From positions 288,001 through 352,000 of the forward strand of contig CAWCRS010000007.1 in the NCBI GenBank assembly GCA_963798085.1: DNA of 64,000 nucleotides, in the 5' to 3' direction. Every line of letters begins with the position of its first letter. Position 1 is the first letter of the stretch. Shown piece by piece: positions 36,685 through 49,823 of this stretch. The DNA comes from an uncultured Gemmatimonadales bacterium. GTDB taxonomy: Bacteria; Gemmatimonadota; Gemmatimonadetes; Longimicrobiales; RSA9. A program made the position numbers and the translations under genes. The notes beneath the pieces are model-generated. The model ran no database searches. It was not told where the DNA came from and saw only the letters and a list, made by a program, of their open reading frames with translations.

Positions 36685-37881
36685 ATGCCGGCGGCGCCCA
36701 TGAGTAATCTCTCGCCGTCCACGAATGTACCCGACGTCGCCGCGATCGACCGCATTGTCGCGCTGCCCGATCTGGTGCTCCGCAACCTGCAGGTCACGCA
36801 GTGTTACGCGGATCTCGCCACGGCCTTTGCCGCGCGCACCGGCATCACAGGAGCCAACTGGTGTGCCTTTGCCGCGTGGGCCTCGCGCCAGGCGGGTCAG
36901 AGCATCCGCGGCGAAGACCTCGATATGACGCTGCGCCGGGCCCTGGGTTCTCCCGCGGTCGTGCGCGAAATCGAGCGCGTCGCCGGCACGCTCCAGCGCC
37001 TGGGCGCAACCCTGTCCGCCGACCGCGTAACGCAGGTGCTGCAGCAGCTGCTCGACCCCGCGGCCATTCTGCAGCGCACCAGCGCCGCCGTGTCACGCGG
37101 CAACCTCAAGGTGTTCGACGAGATCGCCCGCGCCTTCGCGCGCTTCCTCGACCTGGCTCCGTCCTCTGCTGACACGGCTGTCATCACGGAATTCTGCGGC
37201 CAGTTGCGCGCCGGTGATCCGCCCGACGGCCAGCGTTTCCTGCAGCAGGCATTCACCCGCTACTTCGCCTTGCGGCGTGAAAGCGACGCCCGCACGCGTG
37301 CCCAGCACCTGCTGCTGGCCAACCTCGAGATCGGCTTCCACGAGCAGACCCGCCTGCAGCCCGAGATCGCGGCTGCTCTCGACGCGCCCATCCCGGATGC
37401 CCGCGAATTGTCCGCCAGCCTGCTGCGTCTGCTCTTGCCGTTGGGCGCCGGCCTGCTGTGGCGCGCCCGTCTGCTCTGGCACCGGCTCACGGGACAGCCC
37501 ACGCCGCTCGAGCTGGCGCTGCGCGATCTCGTCACCGTGACTCGCGCCGAACTGCGTCGCGTCATCACCAGTCACCTCATGATGCTGCGCATCGCGCACA
37601 CGGTGCTGAGTCTCGGCGACGACTTGAACGCCGGCTTTCCGCCCCTGCTCCAGCACGCCGATGATGCGGCGCTCATCGCCATGCTGCAGCAGGTCGATCC
37701 AACGCCTGACAGCTTGCAGCAGAGCGGCGCCCGCGACTGGGCCGACTTCGCCGATCGCATGCACTTCATTGCCGATCTGTTCCGTTGCTATCAGGAATCA
37801 CCCGAGCTGTTCGACTCGCCTTTCAGCGCCGAACAGGGGACAGCAATCAGAGAGGGCCGGATACCCTCCGGCCCTCTCTGA
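36685..37881 (+). CDS. Hypothetical protein (possibly DUF2515-related)
   Basis: Long biased ORF; RNLQVTQCY, NWCAFAAWAS, HEQTRLQP, DWADFADRMHFI look like conserved motifs; family guess from memory. Confidence 0.7.
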   Translation: MPAAPMSNLSPSTNVPDVAAIDRIVALPDLVLRNLQVTQCYADLATAFAARTGITGANWCAFAAWASRQAGQSIRGEDLDMTLRRALGSPAVVREIERVAGTLQRLGATLSADRVTQVLQQLLDPAAILQRTSAAVSRGNLKVFDEIARAFARFLDLAPSSADTAVITEFCGQLRAGDPPDGQRFLQQAFTRYFALRRESDARTRAQHLLLANLEIGFHEQTRLQPEIAAALDAPIPDARELSASLLRLLLPLGAGLLWRARLLWHRLTGQPTPLELALRDLVTVTRAELRRVITSHLMMLRIAHTVLSLGDDLNAGFPPLLQHADDAALIAMLQQVDPTPDSLQQSGARDWADFADRMHFIADLFRCYQESPELFDSPFSAEQGTAIREGRIPSGPL

Positions 37882-38073: not shown

Positions 38074-39615
38074 TCAGTGGATTTGCGCGTCGAACGCGCC
38101 GGTCAGTACGCGGTCACCCCGCCGCACCTGCGCCCAGATCCGGTAGTGGCCGGGCTTCGGCAGCAGCAGCGGGAAGCGGATGTCGCCGGAGTAGCGCGCC
38201 TGGTCCGCACCCAGCATCATTCCGGCCATGGCTGCATCGCTCGTACCACCCGGGGCGTTGCGCTCCAGCGCCTCCTGCGCCGCCATCGAGAACGTGCCCA
38301 CGGGGTGCAGATGCAGGAACACCTGTCCATCATCCCGCGCCATCATGGTGTGCCCGGCCATGCCCATGTAGGGATCCAGCGTCACGGTCGCGCCATCCGC
38401 GCCGTTCACGCGGAACACCAGCTCCGCCTCCTGTCCCGCTGCCAGCCGGTCACTCCCGTTCACCCACGTCATGATCGAGCCATCCGCCAGTGTGCTGACA
38501 CCTGTGTTATCAACGGAGCCCTGCCACCAGGCATCGTCGGGATCCACCGCCGGCCGCGCAGCGGTTGCCGGGGCGGCACCAGCCGCCTCGCCCGCCCCCG
38601 GTACCTCGACCTCCGCGACCATCGTGTGCGAGAACCCGTCCGCGTGCACCAGATCGGCGTATACGCGGTAGCGCCCCGCCGCCAGCGTCGGCAGTGCCAG
38701 GTCGAAGGAATTCGCATCGACGCGCACCGGGTGCACGTGGCCGAACACCGCCGCATCGCCTTCGCGCACCAGGAACATGTGCATCAGCTTGCCGTGATCC
38801 GGAATCAGATCCGCCCGCCGGTACCGTCCGTTGCGTGTGCGCCAGGTCGAATCGTCGCGCATGACCCAGAGCGAATCCGTGATGGCGAAGTGCAGCACGG
38901 CGCCCGCAGGCGTCTCGCGGAGACTGGCTTGCGCGCTCCACGGCCGGTCCACTCGCGCCCGGTACTCCCGCGCATCCGCCTGGATCCACGTCCAGCCGCC
39001 GAACAGCATCAGTGCCAGCACCGCGCTGCCCGCTGCCATGGCGAAACGGGCACGCCGGCGCTCGCCGGCGCCCGGCTGCACGCCCGGCGCCAGCACGCTC
39101 TCACGCGCGCCCGCGCCCACGATCGTCAGCATACCCACGACCAGGAACAGTCCGCCCGCCAGGATGAAGAAGCCCAGCCCGCGCGGCATGGATAACTGCG
39201 CGTTGGCTCTCGCCACCACCGGTACGGTTGCCGTGCCTCGGCCCGCGCTGCCGGCCACCGTCACGATCACGCTGTATGCGCCGCGCGTCATGAACCAGAG
39301 CTGCGCCGCCCAGACGCCCGGCGCGCCTGGTACCGGCTTCGCTGCATCCGGAGGCGGTGCCTGGCCCACCGCACCAATGCGTCGCAGCGCGGTCACCAGC
39401 ACCGTGTCCGGCGTACCTCCCTCCGTGTGCACCGTGATGTCCGCCAGCCCCGGAATCACGCCCGGCTGCCGCACGCTCACCCGCACACCCCAGGGACCGG
39501 CCCGGCCCACGAAATACACGTCGTCGCTGCCCACGTGTGCTGATAACAGCGTGCTTGCCAGCGCTAGCGCGGCCAGGCGCAGCCTCAGCCGCCCGCGTGA
39601 CCCGGTCGCGCTCAT
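38074..39615 (-). CDS. Exported His/Met-rich putative copper-binding protein: signal, N-terminal His, soluble domain, 2 TM, soluble domains
   Basis: LLSA|HVGS cleavage site; DHGKLMHMF, GHVHP, YMGMAGH, HLHP motifs; ATGA overlap with upstream gene. Confidence 0.8.
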   Translation of the reverse strand: MSATGSRGRLRLRLAALALASTLLSAHVGSDDVYFVGRAGPWGVRVSVRQPGVIPGLADITVHTEGGTPDTVLVTALRRIGAVGQAPPPDAAKPVPGAPGVWAAQLWFMTRGAYSVIVTVAGSAGRGTATVPVVARANAQLSMPRGLGFFILAGGLFLVVGMLTIVGAGARESVLAPGVQPGAGERRRARFAMAAGSAVLALMLFGGWTWIQADAREYRARVDRPWSAQASLRETPAGAVLHFAITDSLWVMRDDSTWRTRNGRYRRADLIPDHGKLMHMFLVREGDAAVFGHVHPVRVDANSFDLALPTLAAGRYRVYADLVHADGFSHTMVAEVEVPGAGEAAGAAPATAARPAVDPDDAWWQGSVDNTGVSTLADGSIMTWVNGSDRLAAGQEAELVFRVNGADGATVTLDPYMGMAGHTMMARDDGQVFLHLHPVGTFSMAAQEALERNAPGGTSDAAMAGMMLGADQARYSGDIRFPLLLPKPGHYRIWAQVRRGDRVLTGAFDAQIH

Positions 39616-40817
39616 CGCTGCACCCGGCGCATCCAATCGCCCCACCACAGACCCGCACGCGTCGAAAGCACCGCGCACAGCAGCGCCCAGCCCAGCCCGC
39701 GCAGCAGCAGCAGCGGACTGAACGCACCGTCCCGGCCGCGATCCACGAAGAAGCGCGACAGACCCGGACTCAGCTGCTGCGCGTAGGGAAAGTGTTGCGC
39801 CAGGAAGAAGTCGTTCTGTGCCAGCGGCGAACGCAGCAGGAAGCTGCCGAACGCCCAGTGCGTAATCAGCATCGTCGCCACAAACAGGACGCCGCCCAGA
39901 GCCGCACGCTGCCAGTCGCTCGCCTGCGGCAGGCGCCGGAGCAGCACGTCGAATGCTGCGGCCGGCACGATCAGCAGCAGCGGGAATCCGAATGCCGCCA
40001 TGTGCGTGAGCGGGTTCAGGATCGGCGTCAACCGCGGTGTCGCCGGGAATTGTACCAGCACCCATTGCGGGATGAGGAATACACCCGTGTAGAACAGCGT
40101 TGTCAGCGTGGCCGGCCAGCGCACGCGGCCCGCCTTCGCCACTGCTGCCAGGAACAGCGGAAACACGAGCGCGCTCGCCATGTACATGCCGCGACTGTGC
40201 CACAGATTGGGAATCAGTGTGTACTCGGAGGCGGCCGTGCCCACCATCGCGATCAGAGCGCCGGCGGCGTACGCGAAGGCCACGCCGAAACGCCCCGCGC
40301 GCTCACTCGCCGCGCGGTTCTGCAGCCCCAGCACCAGCAGCATCGCGCCCAGCTGGATCGCGATCATGCCCAGCAGCAGCACCACGTGCGGCGGGCTCAG
40401 GATCTGCACGTCCAGCCCGTACGCATTGTGCCACCAGTTGTCGAACGGCACGGAGAAGATCATCGCGAACGCACCCCAGATCGCCACCCAGCCGCCCAGC
40501 GGTCCGCGGAATCCCCAGAAGCGCACCGTCCGCCCCCGCTCTGCGGCCGATCCCGCGAACGTCGTCCGCAGCACCAGCCAGCCGCACGACAGCCCCGCCA
40601 GGCTCGCGCCCACCTGCTCCAGGATGTGCGGCGGGCTCCACAGCCGGTCGCGCCCGATCGACATGTGCCATGAGATGTCCCACAGCAGTCCCGTGATGAT
40701 GCACGTCGAGCAGAACAGCAGCGCGTACACGATCCAGCTCGCGCCATCCACGCCCCCGCGAGCGTGCGCCGGCGCCGGGACGGCGGCGCGCGCCTCCAGT
40801 ATCGTCGTCGACGCCAT
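39612..40817 (-). CDS. Polytopic membrane protein with two PmoC/AmoC-like metal motifs
   Basis: WDISWHMSIGRDRLWSPPH and FDNWWHNAYGLDVQILSPPH; many TM segments; GGAGG RBS. Confidence 0.82.
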   Translation of the reverse strand: MASTTILEARAAVPAPAHARGGVDGASWIVYALLFCSTCIITGLLWDISWHMSIGRDRLWSPPHILEQVGASLAGLSCGWLVLRTTFAGSAAERGRTVRFWGFRGPLGGWVAIWGAFAMIFSVPFDNWWHNAYGLDVQILSPPHVVLLLGMIAIQLGAMLLVLGLQNRAASERAGRFGVAFAYAAGALIAMVGTAASEYTLIPNLWHSRGMYMASALVFPLFLAAVAKAGRVRWPATLTTLFYTGVFLIPQWVLVQFPATPRLTPILNPLTHMAAFGFPLLLIVPAAAFDVLLRRLPQASDWQRAALGGVLFVATMLITHWAFGSFLLRSPLAQNDFFLAQHFPYAQQLSPGLSRFFVDRGRDGAFSPLLLLRGLGWALLCAVLSTRAGLWWGDWMRRVQR

Positions 40818-40826
40818 AACCCTCCG

Positions 40827-42983
40827 TTAGAAGCCTGGAAGCCCTGAACCCGTCTGTTGCGTTGCCGTGCGCAGGCCGTGCGGCACCAGCGGCAGATTGC
40901 GCAGCCGGATGCCGCTCGCCCGCCAGATCGCGTTGCTGACCGCCGGCGCCAGCGCCAGCAGGGGCGTCTCACCCGCGCCCGCACTGGGGATGTCCCTGCG
41001 ATCCAGCAGCACACTCTCGATGGGCGGCACGTCGCTCTGCCGCGGCACGCGGTACTGCGAGAGCCGCGGGTTCAGGATCCGCCCGTTCTCGAATTCGATG
41101 GCTTCGAACAGCGCGCCGCCCAGCCCCATGATCACGCCGCCCTCCACCTGGTTGCGCAGCCCGTCCGGATTCACGATGGCGCCGCACTCGAAGGCTACCA
41201 CCAGACGCGTCAACCGGACCTGGCCGCTGGCCCGGTCCACCGCGGCCTCTGCGCACGTCGCCACATAGCCGCCCTTCTCCGTGCCGCACGCCAGGCCGAT
41301 ACCGTGACCCGCGCTCGCCTGCCACGTCTTCCAGCCGAAACGATCGGCCGCCGCCTCGAGCACCGCGCGCAGCCGCGCATCGCGCAGATTGCGCAGGCGG
41401 AAATCCAGCGGGTCCAGCTGGAGCGTCGCCGCCAGCTCGTCCATGTGCGACTCGCGCGCGAAGTTGTTCGCCGTGGCCGCCAGTCCGCGATAGGAGCCCT
41501 GCCGCAATGGTGAGTTAGCCGGATGATAGATCACCCTCTGGTTCGCCACCTCGTAAGGCGTGCCGATGGCGGAAGGTCCGGAATTGTAGTTGTGGAATTC
41601 CCACGCGCTCAGCGTGCCGTCCGCCTGCACACCGCTGCGGATCTCGATGCGCGCCGCGGGCCGGAAATACGCCCACGTGAACTCCTCCTCCCGTGACCAC
41701 ACCAGCCGCACAGGCTTGCCCGCTGCCTTTGCCAGCCGCGCCGCCTCGATCGCCGCTTCGCCGCTGTGCTTGCCGCCGTAGCCCGAGCCCGTGTCCGGCA
41801 CCCGCACACACACCCGCTCCTCCGCCAGCCCGAAGGCCTCCGCCAGCTCGTTGCGCACGCCGAACGGCCGCTGCGTGCCCGTCCATACAGTGAGTTTGCC
41901 ATCCGACCACTGCGCCAGCGCGGCCCGCGGCTCCAGCGGCGTGTGCGCGATGTACGCCGTCGTGTAGGTCGCCTCCAGACGCTGCTGCGCCGCGCCCAGC
42001 CCGTGCTCCACGGAACCGCGCTCCGACGGATTCGCCCGGCCCGTCGACGCCGTCTTCAGGTAGTCGAAGATCTCACGGTGCGAAGGCTGCGCCGGCGCCG
42101 CACTCCACTGCGGGCGCAGGGCTGCGAGCGCGCGCGTGCACGTCGCATCATCGGCCGCCGCCACACCCGCGAATTCACCCTCGTGCACCACCGTCACGCC
42201 CGGCATGGCCGCTGCCTCGCCTGCGTCCAGCGCCAGCAGCCGCGCGCCCATGGCCGGCGGCCGCAGCACCTTGCCCGTCAGCATGCCCGGCACACGCTGG
42301 TCCGACGGATAGCGGTGCCTGCCGGTCACGATGTCGCGGCCCTTGACACTGGGCAGCGCCGTGCCCGCCACGGTCCAGCCGGCGGGAGCGGCTAACTCAA
42401 TGTTGTCGGGCAGCACCTGCGTCAGCTGTGCGCCGCCCGTCAGCTCGCCAATGGCGATCGCACGACCCCGCCCATCGCTCACCCGTCCGCCTGCGAGAGT
42501 CAGACCCGACGCTGGTACTTGCCAGCGCTGTGCCGCCAGCTCCAGCAGTGCATGGCGCGCCGCGGCCGCCACCCGCCGCAGCTGCAGACCCATCTGCGGC
42601 GTGGACCGGCTGCCGAACGTGCCCGCGTCGTAGGGCGTGAGATCCGTGTCGCCCATCACCAGCGTGATGGCAGCAGGCGCCACGTGCAGTTCCTCCGCCA
42701 CCGCCTGGGTCAGCAATGTACGAATGTCCTGCCCCACTTCCACCTTCCCCGTGAACACCGTGACTGCGCCATCGCCGCCCACGTGCAGCCACGTGCCAAT
42801 GCTGTCCGCCGCTGCATACCTTTCGAAGTCACCCGTCGCGGCCCGGGCAGAATCGTCGCCAGCAAGCAGCACGACAACGCCGGCGCCCAGTGTGCCCAGG
42901 AACCCGCGCCGGCTCGGTTGCAGCGTTGCCAGCGCCTGCAACGGCGCATCCAGCAGCCCCCACTCGCGCACGCGCTCAGCCAT
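40827..42983 (-). CDS. Xanthine-dehydrogenase-family molybdopterin subunit (IorB/aldehyde oxidoreductase-like) with Tat-like motif
   Basis: SRRGFLG, GKVEVGQ, GTFGSRST, HTPLEP, GSGYGGK, NQVEGG, GAGET. Confidence 0.93.
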   Translation of the reverse strand: MAERVREWGLLDAPLQALATLQPSRRGFLGTLGAGVVVLLAGDDSARAATGDFERYAAADSIGTWLHVGGDGAVTVFTGKVEVGQDIRTLLTQAVAEELHVAPAAITLVMGDTDLTPYDAGTFGSRSTPQMGLQLRRVAAAARHALLELAAQRWQVPASGLTLAGGRVSDGRGRAIAIGELTGGAQLTQVLPDNIELAAPAGWTVAGTALPSVKGRDIVTGRHRYPSDQRVPGMLTGKVLRPPAMGARLLALDAGEAAAMPGVTVVHEGEFAGVAAADDATCTRALAALRPQWSAAPAQPSHREIFDYLKTASTGRANPSERGSVEHGLGAAQQRLEATYTTAYIAHTPLEPRAALAQWSDGKLTVWTGTQRPFGVRNELAEAFGLAEERVCVRVPDTGSGYGGKHSGEAAIEAARLAKAAGKPVRLVWSREEEFTWAYFRPAARIEIRSGVQADGTLSAWEFHNYNSGPSAIGTPYEVANQRVIYHPANSPLRQGSYRGLAATANNFARESHMDELAATLQLDPLDFRLRNLRDARLRAVLEAAADRFGWKTWQASAGHGIGLACGTEKGGYVATCAEAAVDRASGQVRLTRLVVAFECGAIVNPDGLRNQVEGGVIMGLGGALFEAIEFENGRILNPRLSQYRVPRQSDVPPIESVLLDRRDIPSAGAGETPLLALAPAVSNAIWRASGIRLRNLPLVPHGLRTATQQTGSGLPGF

Positions 42984-43458
42984 GGTGCGCCTCCGCGCTG
43001 GCGTGCGCTGCCCTGCGGACGGCGCGCACAATGCGCGGGTACGTGCCGCAGCGACACACGTTGCCATCCATGAACCGGCGAATCTCGTCTTCACCGGGAT
43101 CGGGCTCGCGCTCCAGCAGCCCCACGGCGGACATGATCATTCCGGCCGTACAGTACCCGCACTGCAGCGCCCCCTCGTCCAGAAAAGCCTGCTGCACGGG
43201 GTGCAGGCGACCGTCGCGTTCCAGCCCTTCGATCGTCATCACGGGCCGCTCGCCAACGCTGCCCACCGGGGTGATGCACGAGCGCACCGGCCGTCCATCC
43301 AGCAGCACGGTGCACGCGCCGCACTGACCCTCGCCGCATCCATACTTGCTGCCGGTGAGATCCAGATCCTCCCGCAGTACCAGCAGCAGACTCTTCGCCG
43401 GGTCCGCTTCCACGCGTCGCGTGCCGCCGTTCACCTGCAGATCGAAACTGCTGCTCAT
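42976..43458 (-). CDS. (2Fe-2S)-binding small subunit (IorA/CoxS-like)
   Basis: KYGCGEGQCGACTV, SC, QCGYCTAG, NVCRCGTY. Confidence 0.95.
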   Translation of the reverse strand: MSSSFDLQVNGGTRRVEADPAKSLLLVLREDLDLTGSKYGCGEGQCGACTVLLDGRPVRSCITPVGSVGERPVMTIEGLERDGRLHPVQQAFLDEGALQCGYCTAGMIMSAVGLLEREPDPGEDEIRRFMDGNVCRCGTYPRIVRAVRRAAHASAEAHHG

Positions 43459-44302: not shown

Positions 44303-45999
44303 TCACCGCCGGACGGCACCGCCCGCCGCGACCGGCTGCGCCAGCGCCTGCGCCGCCTGCACCAGCTCCAGGAAGCCCGCGCGGTACCCGCCCGCGTCGC
44401 GCCCCACGCCAGCGCGCGCCAGATCCAGCACCGACGCGTAGCTCGCATTCCCGCGATGCGGCGACTCCCGCAGCAGCATGCCGAACTCCGCGACCGCAGC
44501 CGCGAACGTCAGGTCCCCGCTGCCCGCGGTCACGTGGTCCGCGACCGGCCGCTGCAGCAGCTGGCTCGTATCACCATCGTTTGCCTTGTAGCGCAGCTTC
44601 ACGAACGCCAGCTCAGCGCCGCCCGATGTCAGGCTTGCCACCCGGCTGCTCTGATAACGCAAGGAGTCCGTCCCGCGCATGTCGATCGTCGACTCCGCGC
44701 CCACCGGCACTACCTCGTACAGCGCCGTCACCGAGTGGCCTGCACCCAGCTCACCCGCATCCTTGTGATCGTCGTTGAAGTCCTCGGCCGCCAGCAACCG
44801 GTTCTCGTAGCCGATGAGCCGGTACGCCGCCACCTTCGCCGGATTGAACTCGACCTGGATCTTCACGTCCTTCGCCACCGTGTACAGCGTCCCGCCCAGC
44901 TCCTGCACCAGCACCTTGCGCGCCTCACCAATGTCGTCGATGTACGCGTAGTTGCCGTTCCCCTTGTCCGCCATGAGCTCCATCTTCGAGTCCTTCAGGT
45001 TGCCCGTGCCGAAGCCCAGCACCGTCAGGAACGTGCCCTGCTGCCGCTTCTCCTCCACCAGCCGCATCAGGCCGCGTCGTCCGACTCGCCGACATTGAAG
45101 TCGCCGTCCGTCGCCAGGATAACACGGTTGTTACCACCGCGCAGGTGATTCTGCCGCGCGATCTCGTACGCCAGCCGCAGCCCTTCGCCGCCCGCCGTGG
45201 AACCGCCCGCCTCCAGCCGCTCCAGCGCCGCCAGGATCTCTTCCTTGCGCGTGCCCGGCGTGGATTCCAGCACCTGCCCTGCGTTGCCCGCGTATACCAC
45301 GATCGCCACCCGGTCCTGCGGCCGCAGCTCGTTCACCAGCAGACCGAACGCCTGCTTCAGCAGCGGCAGCTTGTCCGGACTGTCCATCGAGCCCGACACG
45401 TCGATCAGAAACACCAGGTTGCTGGCCGGCACATCCGCCACGCCCAGCGCCCGCGCCTTGAGACCGATGCGCAGCAGCCGGTGCGCCGGCTGCCACGGCG
45501 CAGCGCCCAGCTCCGTGGTCACTGCAAACGGTGCGTTATCATCAGGCGAGGGGTCGTCATAGGTGAAGTAGTTGACCAGCTCCTCGATGCGCACGGCGTC
45601 CTTCGGTGGCAGCTGGCCCTGGTGGATGAAGCGGCGCACGTTCGCGTAGGAAGCGCGGTCCACATCGATGGCAAACGTCGACAGCGGATTGGCCGCCGCG
45701 GCCATGAACGGATTCTCATCGACGGCCGCGTAGGACTCGGTGTTGAAGCGCTGCGGGTCGGAAGCCTGCAGCATGGACTTCGCCAGCGAAGCACGGATCG
45801 GCGGAGACGTCGGGGCGCTGATCGCGCCGACTTCATCCCTTGCCTCCGCATCCTTCGCGTTCTGGCCGTTGACGCGAACGCCAGCGCGTCCGTTGCTCTC
45901 CCTGAGCGCACCCGGCAAACCGCAACGCGCTGCGCTCAGCACGACCACGCTCAGCGCCATGGCCGCCAGCGCGGGAACCGCAGGACCTCGTGACCGCAT
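44303..45999 (-). CDS. YfbK-like VWA-domain protein, frameshift near 45067
   Basis: [42 protein letters not shown]; continues [30 protein letters not shown]. Confidence 0.9.
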
Positions 46000-47773: not shown

Positions 47774-49823
47774 ATGGAAGCCATTCAAGCCCGCAGCATT
47801 AACGTCATCCGCGGCCTCGCCATTGATGCCGTCGAACGCGCCAGGTCCGGCCACCCGGGACTGCCCATGGGTGACGCCCTCATGGCGTATGTCCTGTGGA
47901 AGCACTTTCTCCGACACAATCCGCTGAATCCCGAATGGCCGGACCGCGACCGCTTCGTGCTCTCCGCCGGCCACGGCTCGATGCTCCTCTACGCGTTGCT
48001 GCATCTCAGCGGCTACGATCTGCCGCTCGATGAGCTGAAGCGTTTCCGACAGTGGGGCAGCCGCACCCCTGGCCATCCCGAACACGGCCTTACACCCGGC
48101 GTCGAGACCACAACCGGGCCGCTCGGTCAGGGCTTCGGCAACGCCGTCGGCATGGCCCTCGCCGAGCGCTGGCTGGCCGCGACGTACAACCGGCCCGGCC
48201 ACGAAATCGTGGGTCACCGCACTTTCGCCATCGCGAGCGATGGCGATCTCATGGAGGGTGTGCAGGCCGAAGCCGCGTCGCTTGCCGGCCATTGGGGGCT
48301 CGGCCGTCTGATCGTCCTCTACGACTCCAACCACATCTCCATCGACGGCTCGACCGACCTCGCCTTTACCGAGGACGTGTCCCTGCGCTACAAGGGGTAT
48401 GCCTGGCAGGTGCTGCATGCCGCGGGCACCGACATGGACTCCATCGAAACCGCGCTGCGCGCCGGCCTCGCCGACGAGACCCGGCCCACGCTCATCGTCG
48501 TGCGTACGCACATCGGGTATGGCGCCCCGCACAAGCAGGACACCGCCGAGGCCCACGGCGAGCCGCTCGGTCCCGAGGAAGCGAAAGCGGCGAAGGAGCG
48601 CCTGGGCCTGCCGCTCGACCAGGAGTTCTGGGTCCCGGAGGACGTGCGCGCGCACATGGACGCGCGTCCTGCGGGAGAATCGCTGGAACAGGAATGGCGA
48701 CGCCGCTTCGACAGTTACGCGCACGAATTCCCCGAGCTGGCAGCGCAATTCCGTCGCGCCCTCGTCCGCGAGCTTCCAGCCGGTTTCGCCGACGCCCTGC
48801 CCACATTCAAGCCCGGGACACAGCTGGCCACGCGCAAGGCATCAGGAGACACGCTCAACGCACTGGTAGCGCATGTGCCCGAGCTGATCGGCGGCTCCGC
48901 CGACCTCACCACGTCCAACAACACCGCCATCAGGTCGACCGGCTCCATCGAACGCGGCGACTGGGGCCAGCGCTACATCCACTTCGGCGTCCGCGAGCAC
49001 GGCATGGGCGCGATCCTGAACGGGCTGTGCCTGCACGGCGGCATTCGACCCTTCGGCGCCACCTTCCTCATCTTCTCCGACTACATGCGCCCTTCCATCC
49101 GCCTGGCCGCGCTGATGGAACAGCCTGTTATCTACCTGTTCACACACGACTCCATCGGTCTGGGCGAGGACGGTCCTACGCACGAGCCCGTCGAGCAGCT
49201 CATGTCACTGCGTCTCATTCCCGCACCTGGATGTGATACGGCCCGCCGACGCGGATGAGACCGCTGTCGCCTGGACCATGGCGCTGGAGCGCACCAACGG
49301 ACCCTCGGCGCTCGTGCTCACGCGCCAGAAGCTGCCCGCGCTGGACCGCGGACCGGGGCGCACGTTCGCTTCCGCGCGCCTGGCTGCACGCGGCGGCTAT
49401 GTCCTCGTCGATGCGGAAGCTGCGGGCCAGCCCCTCACGCCGCACGTGATCCTGATCGGCACGGGCAGCGAGGTACACCTTTGCATTGAAGCGCGCGCCC
49501 GGCTCGCCGCCGAGGGCATTGCCACCCGTGTGGTCAGCATGCCTTCCCTGACGCGCTTCGTGGCGCAGCCCGCGGACTGGCGTGACCTGGTGTTGCCCCC
49601 TTCGATCACGGCCCGCGTCGTCGTCGAGGCAGGGATAACACGCGGTTGGGGAGATATCACGGGCCCGGCGGGAGAGATCGTGGGCGTGCAGCGCTTCGGC
49701 GCGTCGGCGCCCGGTGACGTAGTGCTGCGCGAGCTGGGGTTCACGCCCGAGCATGTGGTCGCGTGCGCCCGGGCGGCACTGGCCAGGGCTGCCAGCTTCG
49801 CACACTCGGGCTCTGTCGATTAG
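47774..49823 (+). CDS. tkt: Transketolase, +1 frameshift near 49222
   Basis: [25 protein letters not shown] ThDP motif, GGSADL, FGVREH, GEDGPTH; then RPADADE, GTGSEV, FGASAP. Confidence 0.95.

Follow-up and report, generated by a model that had tools for sequence, protein, structure and literature searches.

The subject of this report is a pair of genes in a 64,000-nucleotide stretch of DNA, hereafter the window, from an uncultured Gemmatimonadales bacterium (GenBank assembly GCA_963798085.1, contig CAWCRS010000007.1, positions 288,001 to 352,000 of the forward strand). The first gene, P0001 (39612..40817 of the window, minus strand), is defined as an open reading frame (ORF) and by its AlphaFold2 model, and encodes a ten-helix membrane protein of 401 aa; the second, P0002 (38074..39615, minus strand), encodes a protein of 513 aa. 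An initial annotation had put P0001 forward as a candidate single polypeptide that may supply the C and A subunits of an enzyme like a copper membrane monooxygenase (CuMMO), in the manner of particulate methane monooxygenase (pMMO) and ammonia monooxygenase (AMO). On the whole, our analysis indicates that P0001 is very probably a distant homologue of the CuMMO membrane core, with a C core fused to an A-like domain, and in complex with an immunoglobulin (Ig)-fold partner, P0002, in the place of subunit B. Both halves of the earlier claim are thus supported, while the C part consists of the four-helix PmoC core only, the unit has two genes of which the partner had been missed, and monooxygenase activity stays a proposal, weighed below.

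The N-terminal half of P0001 carries two metal-site motifs. Motif 1 reads D47-I-S-W-H51-MSIG-R56-D57-RLWSPP-H64 and motif 2 reads D126-N-W-W-H130-(13 residues)-H144, with a separation of 79 residues, exactly as had been described. The PmoC motifs that had been quoted for comparison are also found in real PmoC, AmoC and HmoC sequences: in a subunit C reference alignment of 15 sequences (phage pmoC; plasmid amoC, pmoC, pxmC and hmoC), D128/H132/H145 and N199/H203/H217 are invariant in 15/15, and the corresponding distance, from D128 to N199, is 71 residues. The alignment bears out the claimed register of the His spacings, the Trp residues, the RD pair and the Pro before the His, with Asp for Asn at the second site. 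Site 1 (40626..40679, minus strand) is of CuC type, D47, H51 and H64 having the CuC spacing of 0, +4 and +17 (Asp, His, His), and D57 stands at the place of AmoC D146, the fourth CuC residue listed in the available text of PMC13058606. Site 2 (40386..40442, minus strand) can be assigned to the CuD type, for which the spacing of 0, +4 and +18 and both His (H130 and H144) fit, with Asp126 in place of Asn and with D136 beside the position of the CuD glutamate. Both motif loops are placed on the same, outer side of the membrane by the positive-inside rule. Of the 58,850 ORFs in a six-frame translation of the host genome, P0001 is the only one with the two-motif pattern, and five have a pattern of the ligands only; given this rarity, the motifs of P0001 are not due to chance.

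Conservation of the six putative ligands, which had been put forward as a check, is high in the family. They are invariant in 119/119 close homologues, and all six are retained in 59/72 divergent members (full-length representatives with 28-45% identity, the fragments among the 150 matches being excluded). By position, the counts in the divergent set are 72 for D47, 61 for H51, 72 for H64, 70 for D126, 63 for H130 and 64 for H144, and the flanking acidic residues D57 and D136 are kept in 66 and 60 members. In the remaining 13 of the 72, His is replaced by Gln, Glu or Asp while D47 and H64 are kept.

The PmoC-like core spans residues 22-168 (40314..40754, minus strand; profiles and hhalign) and has an internal duplication of the form helix-DxxWH-loop-PPH-helix. 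A blind search with the profile of the 72 members against 177,635 PDB sequences returns AmoC/PmoC chains in the top five places, with E from 5e-4 to 3.4e-3, the sixth-ranked match having only E 1.9. Aligned with PmoC by hhalign, the N-half reaches a probability of 90.6% and E 1.3e-6 with both motifs in register, and its score of 46.0 compares with a maximum of 20.7 in 40 column shuffles, reversed and cross comparisons being null. The match persists when the six ligand columns are masked (E 4.7e-4, score 31 vs shuffle maximum 21), and site 1 alone gives a probability of 95.7%. Among Pfam families, AmoC is the one matched by most divergent members, weakly (18/72, best E 0.0011). The likeness to PmoC/AmoC/HmoC chains (PF04896; PDB 9leg_C, 9pxf_G, 9cl6_C, 7s4l_C and 6cxh_C) therefore comprises D-x3-H-x12-H with W, RD and Pro in register, H-x13-H at the second site and the four-helix core; unlike them, P0001 has Asp for Asn at site 2, 79 rather than 71 residues between the motifs, a joined A-like domain and no Pfam AmoC match of its own. 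In addition, the modelled N-half is a four-helix bundle that corresponds to PmoC minus its two N-terminal helices; according to the available part of 10.1101/2022.04.06.487334, two helices are likewise lost in archaeal AmoC with the metal site kept. Another difference lies in the internal repeat: the two halves of the four-helix core align with each other (hhalign probability 92%, E 5.5e-7), whereas a repeat is undetectable between the halves of PmoC (0.4%), which suggests that the symmetric repeat of the P0001 family may be the more ancestral state.

The C-terminal half forms a PmoA-like domain of six helices (residues 171-401; 39615..40307, minus strand), identified by structure search and hhalign and belonging to the fold class of the S-components of energy-coupling factor (ECF) transporters. 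The AlphaFold2 model of P0001 has a mean predicted local distance difference test (pLDDT) of 93.1 and a predicted template modelling score (pTM) of 0.91. For the C-half, each of the ten best PDB matches in Foldseek is a pMMO/AMO chain with the size of PmoA (E 2.8e-3 to 3.7e-2), and structural realignment gives Z 14.3-15.5 for twelve pMMO/AMO entries, the best non-pMMO chain in the list being at 9.2. These PmoA/AmoA alignments cover 185-218 residues at a root-mean-square deviation (rmsd) of 3.4-5.2 and with 12-17% identity, sequence identities to PmoA overall being 12-20%, and the fold of residues ~170-401 is like that of PmoA/AmoA/HmoA (PF02461; 4phz_B, 9cl6_B, 3rfr_B, 6cxh_B, 7s4h_B). The structure search that had been proposed turned out well for the C-half; for the N-half no PmoC chain is listed in the fold searches with the P0001 model, one listing of which gives one chain per entry, and the best structural matches are generic four-helix bundles. 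By profile, the C-half aligns end to end over 210 columns with 117 PmoA/AmoA/HmoA sequences (of 120, chosen by length) at a probability of 58% and E 9.7e-5, with a score of 36.6 vs a column-shuffle maximum of 21.7, and the three PmoA-like segments pointed out in the initial annotation are aligned to PmoA in register. The relation is detectable only with the divergent profile and the 117 sequences: an earlier hhalign comparison of the close-family profile A1 with a 4-sequence PmoA alignment was not significant, and PF02461 is not among the 25 families listed for the 72 divergent members.

In a wide structural search the top match is the ECF S-component 5edl (Z 11.9, rmsd 3.6, 163 residues aligned), and the sole PmoA chain listed is 3chx_B at Z 9.8, which places the A-like domain in the same class of folds as the substrate-capturing subunits of transporters. 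The six-helix fold is common to 5edl, FolT 4z7f, BioY 4dve and RibU 5kbw over residues 173-401, with Z 8-11.9 and with 8-14% identity, which is below the level where helical matches are trusted alone. EcfT/EcfA genes are not among the recurrent neighbours of the family loci within 6 kb. As a side observation, this likeness suggests that PmoA itself shares the S-component fold; a literature search on such a link found nothing.

The reading of P0001 as a C-A fusion follows from each half independently matching a different CuMMO subunit, in the C-then-A order of xmoCAB, and the comparison of each half by hidden Markov models, as proposed earlier, indeed leads from the N-half to AmoC/PmoC and from the C-half to PmoA. 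That an unrelated four-helix bundle joined to an S-component-type domain should resemble the PmoC motifs by chance is highly improbable in our view. Convergence of this kind would agree with the generic bundles found nearest the N-half, the low identity to PmoA and the absence of a Foldseek match at E 0.001, as well as with the failure of Pfam, NCBIfam and single-sequence PDB searches to give a credible match for P0001 and of a PDB search with profile A1 to match anything. It is, however, opposed by two independent halves pointing to different subunits of one complex in operon order, by the five best of 177,635 PDB sequences all being AmoC/PmoC, and by the survival of the PmoC match under ligand masking.

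The partner P0002 begins with the ATG that overlaps the P0001 stop codon (ATGA), an arrangement suggesting translational coupling. A pattern read from the sequence predicts a signal peptide of residues 1-26 ending in L-S-A, followed by His27 as the mature N-terminus (39535..39615, minus strand), and a mature N-terminal His is predicted in 74/78 partner loci, with Asp in 1 and 3 not parsed. The model (pLDDT 90.9) consists of a beta-sandwich, two membrane helices and two further beta-sandwiches. Domain 1 (39202..39537, minus strand; structure and profile) is Ig-like and of YtkA/CrdA type, with His1, W81 and M83 in mature numbering, of which His1 is kept in 62/63 members and both W81 and M83 in 63/63. 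A transmembrane hairpin is modelled at mature residues 119-146 and 157-196 (38950..39183, minus strand). Domain 2 (38599..38940, minus strand; model and alignment) is Ig-like and carries D247-H248, M252-H253 and H267-x-H269, with all four His invariant in 63/63; domain 3 (38077..38505, minus strand; model and alignment), again Ig-like, carries M393, H396 and H409-x-H411, where H396 is kept in 63/63, H409 and H411 in 62/63 and M393 in 61/63. Domains 2 and 3 are repeats of each other (hhalign probability 93%), together holding seven near-invariant His and two Met.

What P0002 has in common with PmoB/AmoB (PF04744) is its layout, namely a signal peptide, a mature N-terminal His, a beta-sandwich, two helices and a C-terminal beta-sandwich, encoded by the last gene; unlike PmoB, it has three Ig-like domains. 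PmoB is not among the top 50 structural matches of P0002, which is a weak absence, and PmoD appears at Z 7.6, the background level. Domain 1 resembles CrdA/YtkA/CopC, each line of support being weak: against CrdA (9ll2) the structural match has Z 9.9 and rmsd 2.7 over 101 aligned residues, tied with the unrelated CBM56; CrdA is the top PDB match of the domain 1 profile at E 0.054; Pfam YtkA (PF13115) is weakly matched by 10/63 partner members (best E 3.8e-6) and not by P0002 itself; and a YtkA-like cluster at 0.86 is a lead only.

The two genes are shown to be closely associated. A P0002 homologue lies directly downstream of the P0001 homologue in 78/80 loci, and in the 2 misses the sequence ends within 109 and 2 bases. 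Among 201 genomes of the host phylum, the partner is found in 45, all of which have the membrane protein, and the membrane protein occurs without a partner in 3 (G047, G110, G147), in each case as a ligand-degenerate paralogue. One of the two copies in another genome (G032:C2:92427-99787) has its partner ~4.8 kb from the membrane gene. For the proteins, a predicted 1:1 complex of P0001 and P0002 scores 0.78, compared with 0.02 for the best of 3 controls; this mark is reached by 116/157 solved complexes and 2/215 mismatched pairs, counts that are approximate as own alignments were used. At least 96% of the contacts are the same from run to run, with a partner pLDDT of at least 83. In the predicted interface, helix 1 of the partner is packed against helix 107-133 of P0001, the bearer of D126/H130, and partner domain 1, W81 included, lies over P0001 residues 56, 131-135 and 141-145, beside both sites. 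The prediction supports binding of P0002 to P0001, and a likeness to pMMO could contribute to the score.

Overall, the unnamed family comprises 5,477 proteins with E <=0.001 among 8,000 scored candidates, and 2,515 clusters at 50% identity match within the same E limit. Among named relatives, the closest come mostly from Gemmatimonadota, and also from Acidobacteriota and Eisenbacteria; further relatives include a bacteroidete plasmid copy (44.5%) and a planctomycete. The family is present in 48/201 genomes of the host phylum and in 8/151 genomes around an acidobacterial genome, each tally including one unpublished positive (G180 and G226). For 20 cluster representatives the annotation is 'hypothetical protein' or nameless. 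Viral contigs hold neither a family member nor pmoA, and a viral structure library gave no match. Fused forms of 759-2165 aa were not found, which is weak evidence. Natural splits into C and A genes were considered and rejected, the candidates L141 (from G007), L135 and L178 being single frameshifts; G309 also has the gene in two pieces. In the P0001 clade, SURF1 adjoins the pair in 4 loci (L034, L057, L063, L079), while 7 others (L006, L007, L008, L019, L022, L032, L060) have a redoxin gene as neighbour, in some cases together with DsbD; both are clade-limited.

A second architecture is found in a clade of actinobacterial type, made up of plasmid members (L136:5950-7377, L137:6004-7437, L138:5932-7377) and metagenomic ones (L145-L163), whose C-A core aligns to the P0001 family with an hhalign probability of 99.9%. 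Here the core is followed by a tail in which a basic-hydrophobic, signal-peptide-like segment ending in A-x-A precedes HDPG, an Ig-type beta-domain and an anchor at the C-terminus. This HDPG-type tail is present in 16/22 ORFs parsed from 27 loci, the other six being short fragments and five loci not being parsed, and both metal motifs are found in all 16 ORFs long enough for the tail motif. Between the tail and the part of the partner made up of domain 1 and helix 1 there is a weak relationship (E 2.6e-4, score 30 vs shuffle maximum 19.7), and the tail profile has no match in the PDB. From these sequences we infer that the actinobacterial form would be a polyprotein of C-A-B type cut by signal peptidase. 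In the same clade a divergent TetR gene is frequent, and NuoL/M/N-like subunits adjoin in L157 and L159. A mycobacterial plasmid homologue of 616 aa (L134:5746-7596), directly after copC, is extended at its N-terminus and differs in its C-terminal domain.

A third group consists of paralogues without a partner (L142:4502-5644, L143:4847-6334 on the minus strand, and L144:4855-5997), which keep the A-like half and have lost H51 in L144 and all six ligands in L142 and L143. They lie in polysaccharide clusters with a sulfotransferase, an acyl-carrier-like ORF, an SDR reductase, an AMP-dependent ligase and glycosyltransferases. With these acyl-activation genes, they bring up the view that the family is a Zn or Fe metalloenzyme other than an oxygenase, acting on envelope lipids or acyl groups as a hydrolase, transacylase or desaturase-like enzyme, with the A-like domain binding lipid. 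We consider this unlikely. Asp/His2 sites can bind Zn, the available text of PMC13058606 states that Cu, Zn and Fe have each been reported at sites of pMMO/AMO, the His replacements in the 13 divergent members would be in line with it, and genes for Lgt, sortase, L,D-transpeptidase and peptidoglycan hydrolase occur in the actinobacterial islands. The N-terminal His and the His/Met clusters of the partner, together with the copper-gene neighbours described below, nevertheless indicate Cu; and since the partner has been lost from the degenerate paralogues, their function need not equal that of the intact family.

We then turn to the function, for which the preferred reading is that P0001-P0002 may be a copper-dependent membrane oxygenase or oxidase with a lipid-soluble substrate. 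We give this slightly less than an even chance. In the proposed mechanism, signal peptidase would free His1 of the partner, and His1 with the Trp and Met, together with the two His/Met domains, would capture periplasmic copper and pass it to P0001. There, the four-helix bundle has D47/H51/H64 and D126/H130/H144 at its outer ends, and these residues would bind one or two Cu in the manner of CuC and CuD, the identity of the metal being itself presumed. According to the available text of PMC13058606, subunit C houses the active site of the CuMMOs, and the ligands of each site are two His and either Asp or Asn. By analogy, membrane quinol, which is the proposed reductant of CuMMOs in the available part of 10.64898/2026.08.31.748207, would reduce the centre, and O2 would be activated; with quinol as reductant no reductase gene would be needed. 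The last and weakest step supposes a hydrophobic, membrane-resident substrate, for example a lipid acyl chain, an isoprenoid or a lipophilic xenobiotic, which might be bound where the C core and the A-like domain face each other and would feed no dedicated catabolic pathway. In the AMO of N. briensis a lipid lies between the two Cu, as given in the same part of PMC13058606. Oxidation of methane or ammonia by P0001 is not implied. A fuller proposal, namely an active family of minimal copper membrane oxygenases in aerobic heterotrophs, with the Asp-His-His repeat as the ancestral state of CuC and CuD, the Ig-fold partner replacing PmoB and the actinobacterial form as a polyprotein of C-A-B type, is tentative and in our estimate rather doubtful as a whole.

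A number of observations weigh against the CuMMO-type and oxygenase interpretation. Site 2 alone is not significant against PmoC site 2 (probability 0.6%, E 0.09), so that site 1 is the source of the PmoC signal, and site 2 is assigned because it is collinear with site 1 and its spacing is exact; the glutamate preceding site 1 in PmoC is not kept. The invariant PmoA signatures GDWxFWxDWKDR and PEYLR are not kept in the P0001 family, the A-like domain also differing from PmoA by its covalent join to the C core and its six helices. In 1/30 block-permuted controls the C-half/PmoA score was exceeded (42 vs 36.6, with a mean of 25.5), and because of this control the sequence evidence for the A-half carries modest weight and relies on the predicted structure. 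For the partner, the profile comparison of P0002 with PmoB/XmoB shows no similarity, and the positions of the CuB HxH are not His in domain 1 (Ser/Ile by manual register with the PmoB alignment); in favour of the preferred reading, the available text of PMC13058606 has CuB as dispensable in the mycobacterial enzyme HMO and absent from verrucomicrobial enzymes. No pathway gene accompanies the pair, the next most common neighbour cluster being found in 8/82 sequences. A heme-copper oxidase is present in all 48 carriers of the 201-genome sample; COX1 is found in 194/201 genomes (a tally including the unpublished G055, G095, G155 and G180), which makes this link uninformative, and 0/7 COX1-negative genomes carry the family, as chance would often give. 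Finally, the closest relatives of the partner are the copper-handling domains YtkA, CrdA and CopC, and the actinobacterial homologues are often within copper-homeostasis islands: genes for CopC, cupredoxin, multicopper oxidase, and HMA or P-type ATPase are near 3/5 actinobacterial plasmid loci and 4/14 metagenomic loci, or 6/14 when DUF305, which we take to be linked to copper, is counted (89 of 108 candidate ORFs were covered in the metagenomic scan).

These last points are the basis for the main rival explanation, possible if on balance improbable, in which the CuMMO scaffold would have been turned into a system that acquires or delivers copper or confers resistance to it, like YcnI-YcnJ (CopC-CopD-YtkA). 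The partner would bind periplasmic Cu by its N-terminal His and its His/Met sites and pass it on to the Asp-His-His sites of the membrane subunit, which would import, buffer or redox-convert it or load cuproenzymes. YtkA/CtaK, Helicobacter CrdA, CopC and Bacillus YcnI-YcnJ indeed share with the pair an exported Ig-like domain, an N-terminal His, an anchor and a His-bearing membrane protein, and according to the available parts of PMC12362106 and PMC13344008, YcnI has an N-terminal His, a carboxylate, a conserved Trp and a membrane anchor, with a YtkA domain in YcnJ, which compares with the near-invariant His1, W81 and M83 of the partner. The match of the A-like half to S-components, the substrate-capture subunits of vitamin importers, the copper genes near the actinobacterial loci, and the SURF1 and redoxin genes would likewise suit a copper system. 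The membrane subunit is, however, nearer PmoA (Z ~15) than S-components (Z <=12), and it is not CopD, as CopD (PF05425) has no match in P0001 nor among the 25 families listed for the 72 members. In the partner, the methionine cluster of CrdA is absent and domains 2 and 3 are without a named family. In addition, the full double set of CuC/CuD ligands exceeds the obvious needs of transport, no copper-homeostasis neighbour recurs in the 80 loci of the P0001 clade, and CopD-family proteins are already encoded elsewhere in the host genome. Copper genes are expected beside copper enzymes too; amo/pmo neighbourhoods are expected to contain CopC and copper genes.

As to the locus itself, a ribosome-binding site GGAGGG (40820..40825, minus strand) is just 5' of the P0001 ATG, inside a gap of 9 bases after a molybdopterin-enzyme gene. 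The upstream neighbours are a [2Fe-2S] small subunit and a Tat-signal molybdopterin large subunit of the xanthine-dehydrogenase family (40827..43458, minus strand), which are probably co-transcribed with P0001 in this locus. A functional link of P0001 to this enzyme or to the convergent downstream genes was rejected, as neither has a homologue in 80 related loci and the arrangement is local. A scan for promoters and terminators at the locus found none (0.4 and 1.7 expected). The convergent ORF of 398 aa at 36685-37881 has a weak match to DUF2515 (E 0.0027). The host genome, which is 90% complete, has a single copy of the P0001 family and no match to PF04896 (AmoC) or PF02461 (AMO); PF04744 (PmoB/AmoB) was not found either, though the search controls gave no signal. 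A vWA/YfbK gene (44303-45999) and a transketolase gene (47774-49823) in the window each appear as two ORFs that lie in different reading frames, and the host COX1 genes on contigs C3 and C9 are likewise fragmented, all of which are probably assembly indel errors.

In the available text of PMC6215863 the CuMMO family is defined by three genes, xmoC, xmoA and xmoB, usually in an xmoCAB operon. Here two genes are found, one of them a C-A fusion, with no PmoB homologue and without the PmoA signature. P0001-P0002 therefore lies outside the CuMMO family as defined, but is built like a member of it, and, judged from sequences and predicted structures, the family is real and is well supported as a distant branch of the CuMMO superfamily, one whose architecture is new. 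Full-text literature searches found no description of the family or of a C-A fusion; supplements and closed journals may hold a mention.

Whether CuC, CuD or both make up the active site of pMMO/AMO is a matter of continuing debate, and expression of these enzymes is difficult. The family described here has thousands of proteins in which a single polypeptide keeps the two sites, CuD being present as a natural Asn-to-Asp variant, and its carriers include a described bacteroidete and actinomycetes. The family offers a tractable model of one or two genes. It also offers an outgroup to the CuMMOs, whose phylogenies are rooted only on archaeal AMO in the available text of PMC6215863. If the reading as an ancestral oxygenase is true, the family would give studies of CuMMO evolution their first outgroup and would serve as an expressible model of the pMMO active site, and an oxygenase of this kind would mean an overlooked O2 chemistry in common soil bacteria. 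If the pair instead moves copper, the origin of methane and ammonia oxidation would be tied to copper trafficking.

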